Positions 2,309 through 61,822 of a DNA stretch of 64,000 nucleotides are shown one piece after another. Source of the DNA: Chthoniobacterales bacterium (GTDB lineage Bacteria; Verrucomicrobiota; Verrucomicrobiia; Chthoniobacterales; UBA10450); assembly GCA_035568175.1 (NCBI GenBank), contig DATMON010000004.1, positions 374,864-438,863 on the forward strand. The letters run 5' to 3'. Both the position numbers and the translations under genes were made by a program. A model generated the notes under the pieces. It had not been told where the DNA came from and did not search any database. It worked only from the letters and a program-made list of their open reading frames with translations. Positions within the stretch are counted from its first letter, which is position 1. The number at the start of each line of letters is the position of its first letter.

Positions 2309-3451
2309 TCAGTGAAAAAAATCCTTCGCCCGTTCGAAAAAGCTTTTACGGAGCGGCGTGTTTTCTTCCCCACACAAATCGGCAAACTCCTGCAGCTTCG
2401 CGCGCTGCTCGGCGTTGAGTCGCGTCGGGACTTCCACCATGACTCGGACAAGAAGATCGCCGCGCTCGCGCCCGTTCACATGAACTACGCCTTTGCCGCG
2501 GAGCTTAAACATCTGCGCGCTCTGCGTGCCGGCTGGAATTTTCAGATTGGCTTTTCCTTCCAACGTCGGCACTGGGACTTCGCCGCCGAGTGTAGCCAGT
2601 GAAAATGGAATTGGGACCTCGCAGTAGAGATTGTCTTCGTCGCGTTGGAAAATCTTGTGCTCTTGAATGTGGACGACGACGTAAAGATCGCCCTGCGGCC
2701 CGCCGCGAATGCCAGCTTCGCCGTTGCGCGATGAGCGAAGCCGCGACCCATCGGCAATCCCGGCGGGAATCTTCAACTTTATTCGGCTCGCTTTTTCGAT
2801 GCGGCCTTCGCCACCACATTCGCGACATGGTTTTTCGACAATCTGACCAACGCCGCGGCAACGCGGACAGGTCTGCGAGACCTGGAAAAATCCGCGGGAG
2901 CTGATGACCTGACCTCGACCGCCACAAACAGGACAATTGATGCTGCGCGACCCGGGCTCGGCTCCACTTCCGCCGCACTTGTCGCAGCCATCGAGTTTTC
3001 GAACTTCGATTTCTTTTTCTGCGCCGAAGGCCGCTTCTTCCAGCGTGATTTGCATGTCGTAACGCAAATCCGCGCCACGTTGTCGATCTTCTGCACGACC
3101 GGCGACGCCGCCGAAGAATGTTTCGAAAATACCTCCACCAATTCCTCCTCCGCCGCTGAAAACTTCACGGAAAATATCAAACGGGTCGTGAAACCCGCCG
3201 CGGAAACTCCCACCCTGTTCAAACGCGGCGTGACCGAAACGATCGTAAGCGGCGCGCTTGTCCGGATCGATCAGGACGTCGTAGGCCTCACCCAGCTCCT
3301 TGAATTTTTCCTCCGCGTGCGGGTCGTCAGGATTTTTGTCCGGATGAAACTTAACCGCCAGCTTGCGATAAGCGCGTTTAATCTCCTCTTCGGACGTACT
3401 ACGGCTAATTCCGAGAACTTCGTAGTAATCTCGTTTTTCTGTTGTCGCCAT
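2309..3451 (-). CDS. dnaJ: Molecular chaperone DnaJ
   Basis: 380 aa. J-domain '[33 protein letters not shown]', a G/F-rich region and four CxxCxGxG zinc-finger repeats. Confidence 0.95.
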
Positions 3452-6099: not shown

Positions 6100-6729
6100 C
6101 TACTCCCACATATAGGAGTGCGTTTCCGCCACGATCGTGCCGTTTTCAATCAGCAAACAACGCCATGCCGTTACTCGCCCGTCGTCGAAGTAATCGTCCC
6201 CAACCACTTTGAACGCCGTTTTATGGCTCCCGCGCGCGTTCGAATACGAAATTTCCTGGGCCTGAACATGGGCATGCAGTTTCTCCTGCTTGTACTCCAG
6301 TCGTACGGTTAGATCAGCTGGACGGCGCGCCTTCCAGAAGAAATCGAAATAATTCCCCATCCGCTCGCGCTGATCGAGCTTGGTCACCGCGCCGAAAAGC
6401 CGGTACTGTCTTTCGAAGCGGATCGAAGCGTCCTGGACCGTGGTCGTTTTACTGGAAGGCGCAGTGCCCGACAGTTTTCCTCCCTTGCCCGTGGCCTGAG
6501 AAGTTTGGTCGCCGGTGTTTTTCGCCTGGCCGGGGACCTCCTCGGTTAAAAGAAAGAGTTTCGTCTTTCGAAACTGGAAATCGTCGCTCAAAGCCGCCGG
6601 TAGCGGAACGACCCGATCGAGCAGGCGGGGTTGCTCCGCCGGGCGACCGAATCCATTCGCCAGCGGAATCAGAGCCAACCATGCGATTAACAACCTCACG
6701 CCTGTTAATGAAACCGGTTCCGCTTTCAC
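6100..6729 (-). CDS. Secreted hypothetical protein
   Basis: 209 aa. Signal-peptide-like N-terminus 'VRLLIAWLALIPLANG'. No family recognised. Confidence 0.45.
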   Translation of the reverse strand: MKAEPVSLTGVRLLIAWLALIPLANGFGRPAEQPRLLDRVVPLPAALSDDFQFRKTKLFLLTEEVPGQAKNTGDQTSQATGKGGKLSGTAPSSKTTTVQDASIRFERQYRLFGAVTKLDQRERMGNYFDFFWKARRPADLTVRLEYKQEKLHAHVQAQEISYSNARGSHKTAFKVVGDDYFDDGRVTAWRCLLIENGTIVAETHSYMWE

Positions 6730-6824
6730 CTGTCAATTCGCAGCAGTGGGAACGGTCCGAGCCGGACTGGCAGTTATCAAACCAATCCAACTTTCGCACG
6801 AGAGGTCAGCGCGTAAATTTGCCG

Positions 6825-9560
6825 ATGATCGAAGTCCGCTACGACCAGGGAGTTTATCTGCCCGTGTCCGACCTGTGGCTCGATCCGTGGGAAGCCAAGC
6901 GGTTCGCTTTTGTGTCGCACGCGCACAGCGATCACATCGCGCCGCATGAAGAGATTGTTCTTTCCGAGCGCACTGCGCGTTTGCTCCAGGCGCGGATGCC
7001 CGGAACCCGAACCGAACATGTCCTGCCGTTCGGCGAACCACACCGCGTCCACGATGTCGATCTAACGCTGCTGCCGGCCGGTCATATTTTTGGCTCGGCT
7101 CAGTTGCTTCTCGCGACCGAAGACGAAACCCTGCTTTACACCGGCGATTTCAAATTGTGTCATGGAAAATCAGCCGAAGCAGCAGAATGGCGTCAGGCCG
7201 ACACGTTGATCATGGAAACGACGTTCGGTTTGCCGCATTACCAATTTCCGCCGACCAAACAAGTGATTACGCAAATCGTCGGGTTCTGCCGGAATGCGAT
7301 CGAAGAAGGCGCCGTGCCGGTCCTCCTCGGCTATTCGTTAGGCAAAGCCCAGGAGATCTTGTGTTCGCTCGAGGGCGCGGGACTGACGCCGATGTTGCAT
7401 GGCTCCGTTTATAAAATGACGCGTATTTACGAACAATTCGGGCAGTCGTTCTGCAAATACGTCCGTTACAACAAGAACAACCTTGCCGGCAAAGTGCTGA
7501 TCTGTCCGCCAAGCGCGAGTCATTCGCCGATGATCGAGAAAATTCCGCGCAAACGCGTCGCGATGATCACCGGTTGGGCAGTCGATCCGAATGCGATTTA
7601 TCGCTATCAGGTCGATGCCGCCTTTCCGCTTTCCGATCATGCCGACTACAACGATCTCATCCGCTATGTCGATCTTGTGCAACCGAAGCGCGTGCTTACC
7701 CTTCACGGCTTTGCCGCCGAGTTCGCGCGCGATTTGCGCGAGCGCGGAATCGAAGCTTGGGCGTTGAGCGAAGAAAATCAGATGGAACTGAAATTGCCAA
7801 AGAGCGTTGTAGCTGCCGGTGTCCCCACCGGCAGTTTTGTAAATCTGCCGCCGGAGACGGCGGCAGCTACACCATCCGAGTTTTTGGATTTCGCCAATGT
7901 CGGCGAGTCAATCGCCGCCACGGCGGCGAAATTAGAGAAAGTGCGCCTGCTCAGCGAATATTTGCGCAACCTGAACAGCGAGCAGTTACCGGCCGTAACG
8001 ACTTACCTGACCGGACGCGCATTCGCCCAGAGCGATTTACGAACATTGCAAGTTGGCTGGGCCGCAATTTATCGCGCGCTGCTCGCCGCCACAAAAATCA
8101 GTGAGAGCGAATTTCATCGTATCGCCGCGACTCACGGCGATCTCGGCAAGACTGCATTCGAAGTTCTCGAAGGACGAACGAAGCCGCAGCCATTTTCAAT
8201 TTTGGAATCCTGTGACTTGTTCGAAAAATTGCATCGCGCGCGCGGACCGATCGCAAAAACGAAACTTCTGCAAACGCGCTTTGCCAATTTATCGGCGCGT
8301 GAAGGTCAATACGTGGTCAAGATTTTGACCGGCGATCTTCGGATTGGGTTACGCGAGGGACTGGTGGAAGAAGCGATCTCGCGCGCGTTCGAAGTTCCAC
8401 TCGAGGAGGTCAAGGAAGCGAACATGTTGCTCGGCGATGTCGGCGCCACGGCATCGCTTGCGTCGGAAAAACAACTGGACCGCGCGGAGTTGTCGATCTT
8501 TCGCCCGATCAAATGCATGCTCGCGACCCCGGAGCCGACCGCGGAAGCGATTTGGGAGCGATTTCGCGACGAGGCCGAAGGGGCAGCAGTTGCAACCGTT
8601 TTCGTCGAAGACAAATTCGACGGCATTCGCGCGCAGCTGCATCGGGATTCCAAACGCGCCGAAATTTATTCGCGCGACCTGCGGCTCATCACCGATCAAT
8701 TTCACGAGCTGGCCGAACAGGCGCGCAAGTTCGATGTCGATCTTATCCTTGATGGCGAGATCGTTGCGTTTGAGCAGGGGCGCAGGCTGACGTTTTTCGA
8801 TTTGCAAAAACGGCTCGGCCGAAAAACGGACGGTGCGGATTTATTTGCAACGGCATCGGCCGATGTTCCAGTTGCGTTTATCGCCTTCGACTTGCTCTGG
8901 CTCAACGGCCGGTCGCTGCTGAAGACCGCGCTCCAGGAACGGCGCGAACTGCTGCGCGGTTTAAAATTACCGGCGCAATTTCAAACCGCAGAAGTTTTTC
9001 CCGCGCATTCAGCCACGGAAATCGACGAACGTTTTCAGCAAGCCCGGCGGCGATTAAATGAGGGCCTGATGGTCAAAGATCCGAACAGCTTCTACACGCC
9101 GGGGGCGCGTGGAATGTTTTGGTTCAAACTAAAGAAAGAACTCGCCACGCTCGACGTGGTGGTAGTCGGCGCGGAATTCGGTCACGGCAAACGCAACAAG
9201 GTGTTGAGCGATTATACTTTTGCAGTGCGCGATGAAACGAGCGGCGACCTTCTGCCGATCGGCAAGGCTTACAGCGGCCTGACCGATGTCGAGATCGCGG
9301 AGCTGACCGAGCACTTCAAACAAAACACGATCGTCGATGACGGTCGATATCGTGAAGTGAAGCCAGATACGGTTCTCGAAATCGCGTTTAACTCGATTCA
9401 GCCGAGTACGCGCCATGCGAGCGGACTGGCGCTGCGCTTTCCGCGCATCAAGGCGATTCGGCGGGACAAAAATGTCGATGCGATCGACACCCTGACCTAC
9501 GCACGCGAACTTGCGGCGCAGGCGGCACGAGCAGGCGTAGATGGAGCTACTAAGGCGTAG
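6825..9560 (+). CDS. Fusion protein: MBL/beta-CASP 'ligase-associated' exonuclease + ATP-dependent DNA ligase
   Basis: The ORF track gives 6681-9560. I prefer the ATG at 6825 ('MIEVRYDQG..'), which removes the overlap with the divergent gene. The N-terminal half has HxHxDH ('SHAHSDHI', near 6918) and the beta-CASP end '..LHGFAAEFARDLRERGIEAWAL'. The C-terminal half has ligase motif I 'EDKFDGIRAQL' (Lys codon at 8613) plus the OB-fold region 'WFKLKKE..LDVVVVGAEFGHGKR'. Confidence 0.85.
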   Translation: MIEVRYDQGVYLPVSDLWLDPWEAKRFAFVSHAHSDHIAPHEEIVLSERTARLLQARMPGTRTEHVLPFGEPHRVHDVDLTLLPAGHIFGSAQLLLATEDETLLYTGDFKLCHGKSAEAAEWRQADTLIMETTFGLPHYQFPPTKQVITQIVGFCRNAIEEGAVPVLLGYSLGKAQEILCSLEGAGLTPMLHGSVYKMTRIYEQFGQSFCKYVRYNKNNLAGKVLICPPSASHSPMIEKIPRKRVAMITGWAVDPNAIYRYQVDAAFPLSDHADYNDLIRYVDLVQPKRVLTLHGFAAEFARDLRERGIEAWALSEENQMELKLPKSVVAAGVPTGSFVNLPPETAAATPSEFLDFANVGESIAATAAKLEKVRLLSEYLRNLNSEQLPAVTTYLTGRAFAQSDLRTLQVGWAAIYRALLAATKISESEFHRIAATHGDLGKTAFEVLEGRTKPQPFSILESCDLFEKLHRARGPIAKTKLLQTRFANLSAREGQYVVKILTGDLRIGLREGLVEEAISRAFEVPLEEVKEANMLLGDVGATASLASEKQLDRAELSIFRPIKCMLATPEPTAEAIWERFRDEAEGAAVATVFVEDKFDGIRAQLHRDSKRAEIYSRDLRLITDQFHELAEQARKFDVDLILDGEIVAFEQGRRLTFFDLQKRLGRKTDGADLFATASADVPVAFIAFDLLWLNGRSLLKTALQERRELLRGLKLPAQFQTAEVFPAHSATEIDERFQQARRRLNEGLMVKDPNSFYTPGARGMFWFKLKKELATLDVVVVGAEFGHGKRNKVLSDYTFAVRDETSGDLLPIGKAYSGLTDVEIAELTEHFKQNTIVDDGRYREVKPDTVLEIAFNSIQPSTRHASGLALRFPRIKAIRRDKNVDAIDTLTYARELAAQAARAGVDGATKA
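7808..7871. repeat. REP-like palindromic element (copy e), translated in frame as the exonuclease-ligase linker
   Basis: TGTAGCTGCCGGTGTCCCCACCGGCAGTTTTGTAAATCTGCCGCCGGAGACGGCGGCAGCTACA. It has an 11-bp perfect terminal inverted repeat and two internal 9-bp stem-loops (CTGCCGGTG/CACCGGCAG and CTGCCGCCG/CGGCGGCAG). Confidence 0.75.
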
Positions 9561-25856: not shown

Positions 25857-25864
25857 TCACGAAC

Positions 25865-25924
25865 TGTAGCGGCGGTCTGCGACCGTCGCATTAATTCGTC
25901 CGACGCTCATAGAGCGCCGCTACA
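25865..25924. repeat. REP-like palindromic element (copy a), intergenic
   Basis: TGTAGCGGCGGTCTGCGACCGTCGC...GAGCGCCGCTACA. It has a 10-bp terminal inverted repeat (TGTAGCGGCG/CGCCGCTACA) and an internal stem GCGGCGGTC-TGC-GACCGTCGC. Its first 15 nt, including the preceding C, are identical to copy d. Confidence 0.7.
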
Positions 25925-26651
25925 AAGAAAGAAATTTTCGCCACGATTCCGGCAGGTCCGCCGTTTCAATCTCGCTGGCGATGCGGCCTTCGAATTCGGG
26001 CTGAAATGTTGTGCTGGTTCCGTAAACCATGAGCACGTCTTCCGAACCTTCGGTCCGAATCGCGTGCGCTACGCCAGGCGGAATCACGACGCCAACATTA
26101 TTGCGGCTGCGATGATTGTCGCCGTCGACAAAAAATCGCATGTTGCGCACGGGTAGACCGGCGCGCACATCCCGTAGAAAAATCTCAGCACGACCCTGGA
26201 GAAAGAACATGATGTCCCACTGCTCGCGATCGTACGGACGCAGCGAATAGTTCTGCGGTTGGCTGACAAATAAACGCCGCAACCATTTTTCCGCTGTCGT
26301 GTCCGCCGGAACGCTGGGGGGATGAATATGAAATCCTTTCGCGCTGTTTGCGAACATCCGTGCAGCCGACCATTGCCGTGGCCAAAGCTTGATCTTACCC
26401 AGAACCCCTTGCGAATCGCGCGCCAACTCGCCAAAACTGCCCCGATGGCGTTGGGGATGAATCTCTCTGGAAAAAATCTCAACGCCCGGGATCCAAACTT
26501 TCTTCAGTTCTGCGCCGCGACCGGCGGCCAGTTCGCCGCCATCGACGCCCGTTCCCGCGATTCGCTGGGCGACAGTACCGTTTTTGTAGTTACGCGGCGA
26601 GAGCCCTTTTCGTGCACGCTCATTAAGACCGAGCCACAAATCTTCTTTCAT
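25920..26651 (-). CDS. RmlC-like cupin (dTDP-4-dehydrorhamnose 3,5-epimerase-like)
   Basis: 243 aa. Cupin strands 'KGFHIHPP' and 'VVIPPGVAHAIR'. The family-level call only. Confidence 0.65.
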   Translation of the reverse strand: MKEDLWLGLNERARKGLSPRNYKNGTVAQRIAGTGVDGGELAAGRGAELKKVWIPGVEIFSREIHPQRHRGSFGELARDSQGVLGKIKLWPRQWSAARMFANSAKGFHIHPPSVPADTTAEKWLRRLFVSQPQNYSLRPYDREQWDIMFFLQGRAEIFLRDVRAGLPVRNMRFFVDGDNHRSRNNVGVVIPPGVAHAIRTEGSEDVLMVYGTSTTFQPEFEGRIASEIETADLPESWRKFLSL

Positions 26652-57593: not shown

Positions 57594-58175
57594 GTGATCG
57601 AACTGATCCCGGAGACATACGTCGCGCCGCTCGACTTGCTCGCGATCTTTGGACGCGTCGCGCCATTACAGGTCGACCTTGGCTGCGGTAATGGCTCGTT
57701 CTTGTCCGAACTGGCGCAACGTCATCCGGATAAGAATTTTCTCGGCATCGAGCGACTGGTTGGACGCGTAGCTAAGGCGTGTCAGAAAGCAGGCGCACTC
57801 GGAAACGTCCGCATATTGAATGTCGAAAACTCTTACGCCGTCGGTTACTTGCTTCCCGAAGGATCGGTCGAAACATTTTATTTATTGTTTCCCGATCCCT
57901 GGCCAAAACGCCGGCATCATCGCCGCCGAATCGTTAAACCAGATTTTCTCGATGCCATTCACCATGCGCTTGAGGACGATGGTTCTCTCCGCATCGCAAC
58001 CGATCAACTGGATTATTTCGATCTAATCCAACGTGTTAGCGAAGATCATTCCGGCTTCGCGATTGCCGATGGCGGAGATGTCGATCTTCCATCGACGAAG
58101 TTCGAGCGAAGATTCATCGCGCTCGGCGCGCCCATTTATCAGTTGGCGCTGCGAAAAATCTCACCGGTCAAGTAA
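57594..58175 (+). CDS. trmB: tRNA (guanine46-N7)-methyltransferase
   Basis: 193 aa with a GTG start. 'VDLGCGNGSFL' and 'LFPDPWPKRRHHRRR' are TrmB hallmarks. Confidence 0.85.
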   Translation: MIELIPETYVAPLDLLAIFGRVAPLQVDLGCGNGSFLSELAQRHPDKNFLGIERLVGRVAKACQKAGALGNVRILNVENSYAVGYLLPEGSVETFYLLFPDPWPKRRHHRRRIVKPDFLDAIHHALEDDGSLRIATDQLDYFDLIQRVSEDHSGFAIADGGDVDLPSTKFERRFIALGAPIYQLALRKISPVK

Positions 58176-60424
58176 GCTCGCGCTTCCCATTTTTGTTGAC
58201 CGAATTCCAATTCCACCGCGCCGGTTTCGTCCTGCCGAAACAGTTTGATCCCACGCGCCCGGACCCGCTCGGCCCATTCATCTGAAATTCGTTCTTGTTC
58301 GGGAAAATCGCGCGAGGTTGCCACGATTAATCGCGGTTGCACGGCGTCGAGAAAATTGTCCGAGCCGGAACCACCCGAATGGTGCTGTCCTTTGACCACA
58401 ATATCGCTGCGCAAATCAACGCCCGACTCGACCAATGATTTTTCCGTCGCGTCACCGCTATCGGACGTAAAAAGAATCTTCGCGTTTTTGATCGAGAGCT
58501 GAACGACCAAAGCTTGATCGTCGGCTGTAGTCCCAGTGAAATCCGTTTGCGGAAACAGAATGCGTCCGGTCACGTTGGACGTGATGTGAAAGTCCTCACC
58601 TGTTTTCGGATTGAGGAGGTTCAATCGATGAGTTGGAAGCATTCCGCGAAGCCGCCGATGAACGGTTGAACGGTCGGCCGCCGGATTGTCGATCAAAACT
58701 GCCGGAACCAAATCGCGCAAAAGATTCTCCGCGCCGCCAATGTGCAGCGAATCCCCGTGTGTCAATAAGAGTCCGCTGATTCGGTTAATTCCCGCCACGT
58801 GTAAATACGGCCGAAGGACGCGCTCGTAATCACGGCCGCTGCCGCAATCGAAAAGCCAATCGACACGTGAAGCACGAAGATGGACGGCCGCGCCGGCTCC
58901 GACGTCCAGCACGGTGATTTTCGCGTGCAATTTTTTCGGCCAACCAGGTTCCGCGACGTAACAATGACTTCCCGGAATTTGCGCAAACCATTGGACGAAT
59001 GCGATCACCGCCGCGGCGAGCAACCAGTTTGCATTATTGAAAATGAGCGAAACTCCCGCAGCAACCGGCGCCGCTGCCAGCGAAAGCAGCGCAATCGCTA
59101 AAATGAAAAATGCCATCGGCACCACGAGCAGATTCGCGAAGAGCGAGCTTGGCGTGATCAGATGAAAATACCAGAAAATCAGTGGCAAAGAACCGAGCCA
59201 GGCCGCCAGAGAAACCGAGCCGCCGCGGCAAATCCATTCGTAGCCGACTCCAATCATGCGTCGGAGGCTGCTGACCAGCCGCCGCGGCAGGAACGGATCA
59301 GGCGCGCCAATTGGTCGAAGCCATCCAGAAAGCGGATCGGCCAATAAAATGATTCCGCCCACGACCGCGAACGAAAGCTGAAATCCCGTGGAGAAGAGTT
59401 CGTTCGTGTTCCAGGAGAGAAGAAAAAATGCGGCCGCGGCCAGACTGTTCAGCGCGAAGACTTTTCGTTCGAAGAAAAAGCCACCGAGCAGAATCGAGCT
59501 CATCACCGCGGCGCGAATGCTGGAAACATGCAGGCCTGTCACCGCTGCATAAAAAAGTAACAACGGAACGATGAGTGCCGTCGCCCATTTCCGGGAAAGC
59601 CTTGCCATCATCGCCAGGATCCACAAAAGGCGCGCGACGATTCCGACGTGCAACCCGGCAACCGCGAACAGATGAAGCGTTCCTGTTTGCTGAAACGGTT
59701 CCTCGATATCTTCCGGCGTTTGATGGCGCAACCCCAGAACCATGCCGCTCAGGAAATTTTGGACCTGCGGTGAATCGTCGAGTCCGCGACAAATCGCGCT
59801 CTGCATCCACGCACGCGATTTTTGCGCGGCTCGCAGAACCGGGTTTCGCGCGCCGCGTTTCAGTAAAGCGCCGTCTTCCGGATAGCGAACAAAGAGACTT
59901 CGCCTCACGTCCTGACGCGCGAGATAGGAACGCATATCGAACTCGCCCGGATTTCGAGGCGGCTCGATCGGCTCCGCTATTCCAAACATTTTCAGTTCGT
60001 CGCCAAATTCCGGATTGCCGTGCCAGCGCGCGAGCAACGTTGCATGAGTCGGCCTCGTTTTACCTTCGAACTCGAGTGATTGAAGCTTGAACAGAAACGT
60101 CGCGAATCCGTTCGGCGCTACTTTTGGCTCCGACGTCACGAATCCGACCGCGCTCACGACGCGCGGCCGATCGCTCAGATCAGCTGCGAGTTGCAGGCCC
60201 GGCGTGTCGCCGGTTCGAAAATTGTGGAGCAAAAAGAAACCGGCGCCGACGAGAAAATATGTCGACGTAAGGTTTGGCCAGCAAAAGGACGCAATTGCCA
60301 GCAGAGTGAGCGCGATCGTACTGAGCCACCATCGAGACGCTCCGATTGGAAGAAAATCCGCAATGATAATTCCAAGCCCCGCCATCAACGCCAGCCCGAC
60401 AAATGGTTGTCGCGGTGTATTCAT
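58139..60424 (-). CDS. comEC: ComEC/Rec2 DNA-internalisation channel protein with a C-terminal MBL domain
   Basis: 761 aa. An N-terminal OB/DUF4131 region, the polytopic 'Competence' domain, and the C-terminal 'VLDVGAGAAVHL...LLLTHGDSLHIGG'. Confidence 0.85.
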   Translation of the reverse strand: MNTPRQPFVGLALMAGLGIIIADFLPIGASRWWLSTIALTLLAIASFCWPNLTSTYFLVGAGFFLLHNFRTGDTPGLQLAADLSDRPRVVSAVGFVTSEPKVAPNGFATFLFKLQSLEFEGKTRPTHATLLARWHGNPEFGDELKMFGIAEPIEPPRNPGEFDMRSYLARQDVRRSLFVRYPEDGALLKRGARNPVLRAAQKSRAWMQSAICRGLDDSPQVQNFLSGMVLGLRHQTPEDIEEPFQQTGTLHLFAVAGLHVGIVARLLWILAMMARLSRKWATALIVPLLLFYAAVTGLHVSSIRAAVMSSILLGGFFFERKVFALNSLAAAAFFLLSWNTNELFSTGFQLSFAVVGGIILLADPLSGWLRPIGAPDPFLPRRLVSSLRRMIGVGYEWICRGGSVSLAAWLGSLPLIFWYFHLITPSSLFANLLVVPMAFFILAIALLSLAAAPVAAGVSLIFNNANWLLAAAVIAFVQWFAQIPGSHCYVAEPGWPKKLHAKITVLDVGAGAAVHLRASRVDWLFDCGSGRDYERVLRPYLHVAGINRISGLLLTHGDSLHIGGAENLLRDLVPAVLIDNPAADRSTVHRRLRGMLPTHRLNLLNPKTGEDFHITSNVTGRILFPQTDFTGTTADDQALVVQLSIKNAKILFTSDSGDATEKSLVESGVDLRSDIVVKGQHHSGGSGSDNFLDAVQPRLIVATSRDFPEQERISDEWAERVRARGIKLFRQDETGAVELEFGQQKWEARAYLTGEIFRSAN

Positions 60425-60486: not shown

Positions 60487-60543
60487 TGTAGCCACGCGCC
60501 TGTGGCGCGTCGGACTGGATGGCCCATTGGGGGCGTGGCTACA
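60487..60543. repeat. REP-like palindromic element (copy c), comEC/rarA divergent intergenic region
   Basis: TGTAGCCACGCGCCTGTGGCGCGTCGGACTGGATGGCCCATTGGGGGCGTGGCTACA. It has an 11-bp perfect terminal inverted repeat and an inner stem ACGCGCC-TGT-GGCGCGT. It shares 'GCGTCGGAC' with the reverse complement of copy a. Confidence 0.75.
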
Positions 60544-60583: not shown

Positions 60584-61822
60584 GTGCAGGATTTGTTTAC
60601 CGAGGAAGACCGCGATTCTGTTAAGGGCAACCCGCCTGAGGCGGGCGCGCCGCTGGCGACGCGAATGCGGCCGCGGTCGCTCGATGAATTTGTCGGCCAG
60701 GAACATATTCTTGCGCCTGGAAAATTGCTGCGCCGCGCGATTGAAGCCGATCGTTTGCCCTCGGTGATTTTATCGGGGCCGCCCGGAACCGGAAAAACCA
60801 CACTCGCTCACATCATCGCCGACATGACGCGCGCCAAGTTTGTGCGTTTAAGCGGCGTAGAAAGCAACGTCGCGGAAATGCGTCGCGTGATCGCGGGCGC
60901 GACCAATCGCACTCGCAGTTCTGGACAAAAGACGATTTTGTTCATCGACGAGATACATCACTTCAACAAAGCGCAGCAGGACATTCTCCTGCCCGATGTC
61001 GAAAGCGGAAACCTGCGACTGATCGGCGCGACCACTTACAATCCGTTTTTCTACGTCAACAGTCCGCTCGTCTCGCGGTCACAAGTTTTCCAACTCGAAC
61101 CGTTGCGTGTCGAGGAACTGGAAGAACTGATTGATCGCGCGCTGGTCGACAAGGAACGCGGACTTGGCAATTACAACGTGAAGATCGACAAAGATGCGAG
61201 AAAGCATCTGGCCAAGCTGAGCGACGGCGACGCGCGCAAATGTTTAAACGCGCTGGAGATTGGCGTCATGACCACGCCGCCTGAAACTGTAGCGGCGGTC
61301 TATGACCGCCAGCAGAAAAAGACCGGCGCTGACACGGCGTCGCTACAGCAGTCAGTGATTCATTTCACGATCGCGGTTGCGGAAGAAAGCATTCAGCAGA
61401 AAGCAATCGTGTACGATCGCGCTGGGGATGCGCATTACGACACGATCAGCGCGTTTATCAAGAGCATGCGCGCGTCCGATGAGAAAGGCGCGATGTACTG
61501 GCTCGCGAAAATGCTACACGCCGGCGAAGACTTTCGTTTCATCGCGCGCCGGATCGTGATTTTTGCGAGCGAAGACGTTGGCCTGGCCGATCCAGAAGCG
61601 CTCCCGCTCGCAATCGCCACCCAGCAAGCGGTCGAATTCGTCGGCTTGCCGGAAGCAAAGATTCCGCTCGGGCATGCGGTCGCGTACATGTGCCGCGCCA
61701 AAAAAAGCCGCGAAGCCTACGACGCGCTGAACGAAGCGACCGAAAAAATCGAAGCCGAACAAACCAAGCGCGTCCCCGAAAATCTCAAAAACAAACACTT
61801 TCCGGTGAATCCGGAGAAGTAA
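60584..61822 (+). CDS. rarA: Replication-associated recombination protein A (RarA/MgsA AAA+ ATPase)
   Basis: 'PLATRMRPRSLDEFVGQEHIL', Walker A 'GPPGTGKTT', Walker B 'ILFIDEIHHFNK' and 'YDRAGDAHYDTISAFIKSMR'. The GTG at 60584 is preferred; the track ORF start at 60080 overlaps comEC. Confidence 0.85.
   Translation: MQDLFTEEDRDSVKGNPPEAGAPLATRMRPRSLDEFVGQEHILAPGKLLRRAIEADRLPSVILSGPPGTGKTTLAHIIADMTRAKFVRLSGVESNVAEMRRVIAGATNRTRSSGQKTILFIDEIHHFNKAQQDILLPDVESGNLRLIGATTYNPFFYVNSPLVSRSQVFQLEPLRVEELEELIDRALVDKERGLGNYNVKIDKDARKHLAKLSDGDARKCLNALEIGVMTTPPETVAAVYDRQQKKTGADTASLQQSVIHFTIAVAEESIQQKAIVYDRAGDAHYDTISAFIKSMRASDEKGAMYWLAKMLHAGEDFRFIARRIVIFASEDVGLADPEALPLAIATQQAVEFVGLPEAKIPLGHAVAYMCRAKKSREAYDALNEATEKIEAEQTKRVPENLKNKHFPVNPEK
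61287..61348. repeat. REP-like palindromic element (copy d), translated in frame inside rarA
   Basis: CTGTAGCGGCGGTCTATGACCGCCAGCAGAAAAAGACCGGCGCTGACACGGCGTCGCTACAG. It has an 8-bp terminal inverted repeat and an inner stem GGCGGTC-TAT-GACCGCC. It encodes '..TVAAVYDRQQKKTGADTASLQQ..'. Confidence 0.7.

Follow-up and report, generated by a model that had tools for sequence, protein, structure and literature searches.

Palindromic selfish repeats that lie in frame within genes and are translated into tolerated surface segments are reportedly found in Rickettsia (the Rickettsia palindromic elements, RPEs). RPE-1 elements are about 100-150 bp long, short RPEs are CGTC-tagged, and the host is obligate intracellular with little recombination; we are not aware that RPEs have been reported to occupy one site in several allelic forms. 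RPEs are also referred to by Di Nocera, De Gregorio & Rocco 2013 (PMC3733652), who described GTAG- and CGTC-tagged repetitive extragenic palindromic (REP) sequences inside open reading frames (ORFs), with inverted dimers coding for 20-30 residues. In that study, the hosts were enriched in replication and repair genes (uvrA and an ATP-dependent ligase in Opitutus terrae, dnaE or dnaE2 in other species such as Rickettsia conorii), genes for REP-associated tyrosine transposases (RAYTs) were present, and recB of two Xanthomonas species was noted to carry different REPs at roughly one position (PMC3733652). REP doublets forming hairpins (REPINs) were described by Bertels & Rainey (bioRxiv 10.1101/2021.07.10.451892) as having conserved arms and a variable spacer, persisting vertically for long periods with the RAYT as a single-copy helper, duplicating very slowly (about 1e-8 per generation) and lying "almost exclusively in extragenic space". 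Here, we analysed a stretch of 64,000 nt from a Chthoniobacterales bacterium (GenBank assembly GCA_035568175.1, contig DATMON010000004.1, positions 374,864 to 438,863 of the forward strand; hereafter the window, to which plain coordinates refer), in which a GTAG-tagged REPIN lies inside the ORF of rarA (mgsA).

The element carries the GTAG tag and the adjoining GC-rich palindrome of the GTAG-tagged REPs, forms an inverted doublet, and belongs to a dispersed family in a genome that has RAYT genes; its location is not extragenic, as the copy sits inside the rarA ORF. The system of Di Nocera et al. is similar in its GTAG-headed inverted dimers, their in-frame position, the replication and repair hosts and the RAYT genes. 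It differs in that RarA/MgsA does not appear among the hosts in the accessible part of its supplement (PMC3733652), and in that here one codon holds 6-10 classes over about 50 species, with old, apparently recombining alleles and conserved arms, none of which was reported there. Like an RPE, the element functions as an in-frame selfish palindrome, yet it is not a member of that group: it is a 60-nt GTAG-tagged doublet, without the RPE consensus or the CGTC tag. Compared to the REPIN-RAYT system of Bertels & Rainey, at least seven of 60 strict doublets are here found in domain-bearing ORFs, and the intragenic copies share the arm and spacer signature. The kind of element is thus already described, whereas the host gene is new and the population-level behaviour has not been described before.

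A REPIN lies in frame within rarA

The features of the locus are as follows.

60584 to 61822, plus strand: rarA/mgsA coding sequence, GTG start at 60584, 412 amino acids
61283 to 61351, plus strand: whole inserted unit, junctions GAAAC / REPIN / GCAG, encoding E234-Q256 (from orthologue DNA alignments)
61288 to 61347, plus strand: REPIN core, inverted doublet TGTAGC...GCTACA of 60 nt, with GTAG-headed REP hairpins and a 13-nt spacer
61288 to 61310, plus strand: left REP, head TGTAGC, perfect 7-bp hairpin GGCGGTC-TAT-GACCGCC, identical to the family consensus
61311 to 61323, plus strand: spacer AGCAGAAAAAGAC, 13 nt, encoding QQKKT
61324 to 61347, plus strand: right REP, decayed, CGGCGCTGACACGGCGTCGCTACA; the intact form of relatives, CGGCGCTGACACAGCGCCGCTACA, has an 8-bp stem

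An earlier reading of this DNA, made from the sequence only, had proposed a REP element at 61287-61348 that contributes about 20 residues to RarA. The element is real, and its borders were refined to 61288-61347; a repeat search gave arms at 61287-61310 and 61325-61348 with 71% complementarity. The ORF list shows a single open frame for rarA, with its stop at 61822, which contains the whole REPIN. Since the 60-nt core is stop-free in frame and a multiple of three, it would be read through as about 20 extra residues. The insert peptide is ETVAAVYDRQQKKTGADTASLQQ, as previously quoted, with 23 residues listed and a net gain of 20 residues over the empty allele PPDSKGV. In the window, the right REP reads CGGCGCTGACACGGCGTC-GCTACA, with the terminal GCTACA at 61342-61347, and the DNA fold z-score of the REPIN is -2.6, versus -5.2 for an intact allele from a relative. 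The window copy is beginning to decay, its right hairpin being broken.

The flanking domains of RarA are intact, as the sequence-only reading had stated. The profile search found AAA (2.3e-17), AAA_assoc_2 (3.7e-26) and MgsA_C (8.5e-42) in one ORF, all above the curated thresholds (PF00004, 64.1 bits; PF16193, 91.6 bits; PF12002, 143.3 bits). The product aligned with E. coli MgsA (PDB 3PVS) over residues 21-403 (E 3.7e-83), and the closest database protein among the matches listed was P0001, also of 412 amino acids. Walker A (GPPGTGKT), Walker B (FIDEIH), sensor-1 (GATTYNP), the SR arginine finger and sensor-2 (GDAR) are all intact, and all five motifs lie in invariant columns of a 42-sequence alignment. 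The order of domains (AAA+ core, lid, tetramerisation domain) is the same as in the E. coli protein, which differs in having a short loop (..MADMAEVDDSGKRV..) where the window RarA has the REPIN-encoded segment. The AAA_assoc_2 match covers 101 residues over 80 profile positions, which indicates about 21 extra residues in the lid, and the 3PVS alignment places these residues in the AAA+ lid, in a loop that follows its sensor-2 helix.

An AlphaFold2 model of RarA had a mean pLDDT (predicted local distance difference test) of 83.6, the only parts below 50 being the termini and model residues 235-252. The latter correspond to protein residues 237-254 and lie between a helix and a strand that both score above 90. 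The insert is thus predicted to be a disordered surface loop, in agreement with the earlier placement in the variable segment past the lid. The open frame, the intact motifs and the wide conservation of the allele suggest that the segment is translated and tolerated by RarA; an example of a tryptic peptide that spans the insert junction is ...TTPPETVAAVYDR. As a separate observation, the RarA homologue P0020 (468 amino acids, from an ENA contig of 1963 nt) has its lid-to-C-domain segment tandemly duplicated internally, with TTPPDSRGVIHF present twice, and this duplication may be real or an assembly artefact.

The segment is an insertion in one lineage

We then compared the loop among RarA orthologues. 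A short loop was found in 27 of 28 out-of-genus sequences from many phyla, and this short ancestral loop (TTPPDSKGVIHF) is also found in 27 of the 52 species of the Udaeobacter-like, genus-level group, where the empty form TTPP-DxxG-VIHF mostly reads PPDSKGVIHF. In nine other Chthoniobacterales families the RarA loop reads TTPP-xxxG-V/I.HF and holds no extra residues. The short loop in out-of-genus sequences, in outgroups and in about half of the species shows that the roughly 20 residues are a lineage-level insertion and not ancestral, and both states occur among public metagenome proteins, so presence or absence of the insert is polymorphic. The out-of-genus exception (L091, 1501-2673, an Alcaligenaceae metagenome-assembled genome) carries an unrelated 18-nt tandem duplication (SGEPGP-SGEPGA) and no REP; the RarA loop accepts a change in length in a distant phylum without a REP.

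The rarA element belongs to a dispersed REP family

The pattern TGTAGC-N30-60-GCTACA occurs five times in the window, compared to 0.01 times expected from shuffles. In the whole genome of 3.2 Mb (G000), 59 strict doublets of this pattern fall in three main GTAG subfamilies, and a fourth family is headed TGGAGGGACG. The A-type REP arm, which is that of the rarA element, has 37 matches in G000 and 7-58 matches per genome in every genome of the genus, while a mirror control gave 0; the B family is likewise dispersed in every genus genome, again with a mirror control of 0. The arms of the rarA copy match this genus-wide family and the outgroup sites are empty, which bears out the earlier view of a repeat copy rather than ancestral coding sequence. 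Among the doublets examined genome-wide in G000, no master copy with the RarA spacer was found elsewhere.

Three ORFs with HUH/Y1 motifs match NF047646 (REP-associated tyrosine transposase) with 89.1, 80.2 and 74.4 bits, the cut-off of this profile being 80 bits, and a PF01797 match of 31.7 bits was found among them. Their positions in G000 are:

C6:62852-63359: RAYT-like gene, NF047646
C6:~37.9-38.5 kb: RAYT-like gene, NF047646
C4:17623-18109: RAYT-like gene, NF047646

We looked for a REPtron organisation around these genes. A REP of the TGTAGCTGCCGCC subfamily, which is not that of the rarA element, lies about 60 nt from the 3′ end of C6:62852-63359, and no REP was found within 600 nt or more of the other two.

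REPIN doublets were found in at least seven domain-bearing ORFs of this genome, which has about 60 strict doublets. The sequence-only reading had named two DNA-repair genes as carriers; the copy in the ligase gene is real, but the number of host genes is at least seven and not two. The seven are:

DnaE (HHH_6)
metallo-beta-lactamase (MBL)-ligase fusion, with a third-subfamily REPIN at 7808 to 7871 of the window (plus strand), in frame in the linker of the MBL/beta-CASP and ATP-dependent DNA ligase fusion ORF 6681-9560
UvrA-like protein of 1933 amino acids
RarA
DAO oxidoreductase
DUF255 thioredoxin-like protein
PurL

Different classes of element occupy one rarA codon

In 25 of the 52 species, a palindromic insert directly follows ACG-CCN-CC of rarA, and the inserts differ in class. 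About ten classes (6-10) can be told apart, which form at least six superfamilies after related classes are grouped:

class A, GTAGCGGCGGTC: the window (L001) and L005
class B, TGGAGGGACGACC...GGACGCGACGGAGCGCGTCCCTCCA: seven species
class B2, GGGACGGGC: L052, L063
class C, GTAGCCGGCACC: L008, L009, L011
class D, GTAGCCGGGGTC: L042, L043
class E, GTAGCCGGCCGC: L047
class F, GTAGCATCGGCG: L016
class G, GTAGCGCGACCG: L055, L064
class H, GTAGCGCAAG: L057, L070
chimera and decayed forms, mixed: L076; L051, L068

The C/D/E family has 23-75 matches in G006, in G023 and in the genomes of L042, L043 and L047, 3 matches in G004, whose own insert is a decayed C, and 0 in G000. Since the classes match families that are dispersed in the carrier genomes, the inserts derive from repeats already resident there. 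On a codon tree of rarA without the loop (52 species representatives), the 14 loop states need 22 changes; this and the other trees are single-gene trees of recombining sequences, most of them from metagenome assemblies. REPs occupy the loop in 25/52 species, the upstream intergenic region at 5 of about 49 loci and the downstream intergenic region at 3 of about 51. We also considered whether "GAC" in the right arm is a derived mutation common to L001 and L005, and this was rejected: it is a rare compensated variant (CGGCGCTG-ACA-CAGCGCCG) that is also found in DnaE of G013 and in GcpE of G011.

Loop alleles are old and are probably exchanged by recombination

To describe the alleles in more sequences, we used a de-duplicated set of 156, made of the best 120 database homologues and the species representatives. 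Allele A (PPETVAAVYDRRQKKTGADTAPLQQPVIHF; consensus PPETVAAVYDRRQKKTGADTAPLQQPV) was found in 57 of these, allele B (PPTGGTTSVSSKSSRTKKDATERVPPTEDGVIHF, a TGGAGGGACG-type palindrome) in 35, some with a nested addition of 8 residues, and the empty allele PPDSKGVIHF in 45. These results show that A, B, empty and rarer alleles coexist in the Udaeobacter-like group. On the tree of the rest of RarA the alleles are interleaved, with 56 state changes over the 156 rows, and sister pairs with unlike alleles occur (P0074 with A and L013 with B; P0110 with A and L010 with B).

The A alleles have a common spacer and common junctions. For B, the spacers of genomic copies vary freely, whereas the RarA alleles share one 20-nt spacer. 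The shared spacers and junctions indicate that each of the two alleles arose from one event. A single origin followed by vertical descent was nevertheless rejected for both, because the alleles are scattered over the trees although their spacers show common descent. The A spacer has diverged as much as the synonymous sites of the gene, so allele A is old, and the age of the alleles roughly equals that of the split between their carriers.

Two closely related pairs show how unlike alleles can come to lie in similar genomes. L147 (allele A) and L013 (allele B) are 97-98% identical over 4 kb, and their single-nucleotide polymorphisms (SNPs) cluster around the insert, 8 of them in the 71 nt on its left side and 6 in the 65 nt on its right side; for L148 (A) and L010 (B), 13 SNPs lie within 88 nt and 12 within 130 nt. 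Near-identical genomes thus differ in an exchanged stretch of about 150-300 bp, a pattern that indicates an imported patch rather than transposition. From the signature in these two pairs we infer short-patch homologous recombination as the way in which the alleles pass between lineages. Divergent from rarA, on the minus strand at 58139-60424, lies a ComEC-type competence gene, and its orthologues at loci L147 and L148 have the domains DUF4131, Competence and Lactamase_B; the adjoining position of this gene is consistent with transformation. In a side observation on the L147 and L013 alignment, the spacer between rarA and fabF (alignment columns ~2700-3400, downstream of rarA, with a small ORF of 73-77 amino acids) is almost unalignable and represents another patch that has been replaced.

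REP arms are conserved at the nucleotide level

Identities were compared among eight genes with allele A, which have divergent backgrounds and different synteny. At synonymous third positions, identity was 0.56 for the gene and 0.90 for the 15 arm codons. Over all nucleotide positions it was 0.80 for the gene, 0.905 for the arms and 0.61 for the spacer and hairpin loop, and the left REP is 100% conserved among A alleles of distant backgrounds. Amino-acid identity was 0.88 for the gene, 0.83 for the arms and 0.40 for the spacer and loop codons. At synonymous third positions, seven genes with allele B had identities of 0.57 (gene), 0.88 (arms) and 0.53 (spacer). In one allele (L151), the left stem shows a compensated replacement of a G:C by an A:T pair. 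Judged from these sequences, the spacer and hairpin-loop codons of allele A drift neutrally. The REP arms in the ORF are kept at the nucleotide and not the peptide level, which could be due to selection on the hairpin or to homogenisation with the family elsewhere in the genome.

The intragenic copy thus continues to act like other members of the REPIN population. An intergenic A-type REPIN of G006 (L156 1440-1526, corresponding to G006:C9:514140-514226) carries 21 nt of the RarA 3′ flank (GCAGCCAGTGATTCATTTCAC); it lies between two convergent ORFs, and G006's own rarA carries a C-type insert. A REPIN resident in rarA was thus apparently copied elsewhere together with host flank.

Loops of other proteins are also occupied

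The loop in the helix-hairpin-helix (HhH) domain of DnaE (KFTPE/..|AIRYG) holds five different inserts in 6 of 16 genus species and is empty in the rest. The palindromic inserts are located at:

G000:C4:42513-42567 (L032/L121): DnaE insert of the genome of the window
loci L122-L136: further DnaE loci

The DnaE insert of G000 has the junctions CCNGAAAC/..|GCAG, as in rarA, and both arms of the DnaE allele of G013 (ETVAAVYDRRNDEVGADTAPQKN) are also those of RarA allele A. According to the table of Di Nocera et al., DnaE of Rickettsia conorii has a REP at a similar relative position, residues 853-861 (PMC3733652). The loop of the UvrA-like protein (G000:C5:68502-68559, L036/L162) is occupied in 10 of 14 in-genus species by at least five types, and that of the DUF255 protein (G000:C14:1590-1662, L039/L182) in 5 of 19, of which three inserts clearly belong to a single family, the other two having diverged too far to be assigned. 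The loops of DnaE and of the UvrA-like protein behave as that of RarA, while the DUF255 loop is occupied mainly by one family. GcpE/IspG of G011 (C25; L155 704-2554) also has an in-frame REPIN (..VTAVCEGRIQADGADTAPLQQ..) with the rare arm variant, which shows that the hosts are not only repair genes.

Possible explanations for the many classes at one codon

Taken together, we consider it probable that a GTAG-tagged REPIN was inserted in frame in the lid loop of RarA, is tolerated there, is old, and has been swapped among alleles by recombination. A REPIN of this family, normally mobilised by a RAYT acting on single-stranded hairpins, was inserted after the sensor-2 helix and would be translated as a disordered surface loop of about 20 residues, with RarA tolerating the insert. 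Insertion allele A is old and coexists with the empty, B and rarer alleles, and short-patch recombination would shuffle them. A rare first insertion would have been followed by replacement of the element, or by nesting, at the resident REP; as the account of the many classes at one codon, we give this last step an even chance. Replacement at a resident element is favoured by four observations: the L076 chimera, whose left arm is of D type while its right arm and flank are those of B; nested hairpin variants inside A and B alleles; a derived right flank, GCCACGATTCAT, that is common to B (L012), C (L011) and F (L016), the empty sisters having GGCGTGATTCAT; and a left junction, AC/T, that is common to A, most B alleles and one C allele (L009).

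Several points weigh against this explanation. No RAYT-like gene (0/3) is flanked by REPs on both sides. The identity of the arms could stem from gene conversion rather than selection, and the two are inseparable here. Recombination tracts are visible in two closely related pairs only; among distant species no tract was seen, and in 120-nt windows around the insert the carriers of the same allele had no excess similarity. Translation and tolerance of the RarA segment would follow from the sequence only, and in-situ replacement would follow from the sharing of junctions and one chimera. Finally, in the absence of a genome-wide flank motif or hairpin, neither targeting nor its absence is shown.

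Site-specific targeting, in which each class was independently inserted in an empty loop, with no role for resident elements, because the RAYT prefers the local DNA (ACGCCNCC/..GGCGT) or the replication context, is a rival to be taken seriously, though we hold it to be less probable than not. It would account for at least six superfamilies at one codon, for inserts that match the families of the carrier genomes (23-75 C/D/E matches in carriers, 3 in G004 and 0 in G000), and for the loop being occupied in 25/52 species compared to 5/~49 and 3/~51 for the adjacent intergenic regions. The DnaE insert and the inferred target of RarA allele A share CCNGAAAC/GCAG, with an empty DnaE allele being exactly CCCGAAACGCAG, and the published rate of REPIN duplication, about 1e-8 per generation, makes chance recurrence unlikely. 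However, among the 15 nt outside 96 REPIN ends we found no conserved flanking target motif beyond (G/A)(T/C)T before GTAGC, and nothing like ACGCCNCC. Insertion into pre-existing hairpin loops was tried as a candidate and rejected, as the flank complementarity outside 60 doublets equalled that of the shuffled control; the flanks are non-complementary. In addition, GTAG-type and GGAGGGACG-type elements, which presumably depend on different enzymes, share the site, and the derived junction nucleotides that are common to different classes, together with the chimera, fit replacement better.

It is improbable that the variation itself is selected, that is, that balancing or diversifying selection keeps the loop alleles because the peptide, or the mRNA or DNA hairpin, alters the function, regulation or interactions of RarA. 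The empty, A and B alleles do persist in backgrounds whose protein sequences are 15-20% apart, replication and repair hosts are over-represented here (DnaE, ligase, UvrA-like, RarA) as in the literature, and the arms are nucleotide-conserved in the ORF. However, peptide conservation is not above the gene average (0.83 for the arms and 0.40 for the spacer and loop codons, versus 0.88), the segment is predicted to be disordered, metabolic proteins are hosts too (DAO oxidoreductase, PurL, DUF255, GcpE), and huge recombining soil populations can keep neutral alleles for a long time.

That the segment is not an insertion, but an ancestral hypervariable coding loop with a chance likeness to REPs, or else an artefact of assembly or binning, has a negligible probability and is refuted: loop length does vary in one distant lineage through the tandem duplication of L091, but the 23-nt arm is identical to the consensus of a dispersed family, the doublet pattern is expected only 0.01 times in the window, the outgroup sites are empty, and the same allele is found in dozens of independent assemblies (JGI, ENA, NCBI) on contigs of up to 535 kb.

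What REPIN-occupied loops may show

With the in-frame, tolerated REPIN as the preferred explanation, the RarA loop is a replicated natural experiment on the tolerance, and perhaps the recruitment, of selfish DNA, in which the same seemingly essential ATPase carries different peptides of 20-30 residues, or none, in dozens of lineages. These natural variants form a series on which the effect of a longer lid loop on RarA could be studied. The arms are kept at synonymous sites while the peptide drifts, which argues for action on the DNA or RNA hairpin and is relevant to whether REPINs live as parasites or are kept as partners. The swaps between 97-98% identical genomes suggest short-patch recombination in abundant uncultured soil bacteria, which fits the adjoining competence gene. 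In addition, the over-representation of replication and repair genes among the hosts, noted in 2013, could become testable in this system. A broader view is offered tentatively, and we hold it to be less probable than not. In it, a few surface loops of replication and repair proteins (RarA, DnaE, UvrA-like and others) of Udaeobacter-like soil Verrucomicrobia would serve as "landing pads" where REPINs from many families are time and again inserted or exchanged in frame; the alleles would be long-lived trans-species polymorphisms that short-patch recombination moves about, the arms would be selected as nucleotides, translated REPINs would act as donors, and the diversity might be selected.

Sister copies in the window

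Two intergenic REPINs complete the features described for the window.

60487 to 60543, strand not assigned: intergenic REPIN from a different subfamily (TGTAGCCACGCGCC...), located 41 nt ahead of the rarA start codon in the comEC-rarA divergent spacer, fold z-score -3.1
25865 to 25924, strand not assigned: intergenic REPIN "copy a", same subfamily as the rarA copy, fold z-score -4.1

The copy upstream of rarA is present at 60487-60543 exactly as first reported. The same reading had noted that the first 15 nt of the rarA element are identical to copy a, and we found the 15-mer CTGTAGCGGCGGTCT exactly twice in the window, at 25864 and 61287; copy a needs its preceding C (25864) for its first 15 nt to equal those of the rarA copy. 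The GTAG head of this intergenic REPIN (25919-25924) supplies the TAG stop of the upstream minus-strand ORF 25920-26651, and GTAG heads that supply stop codons have been described in other species by Di Nocera et al. (PMC3733652).

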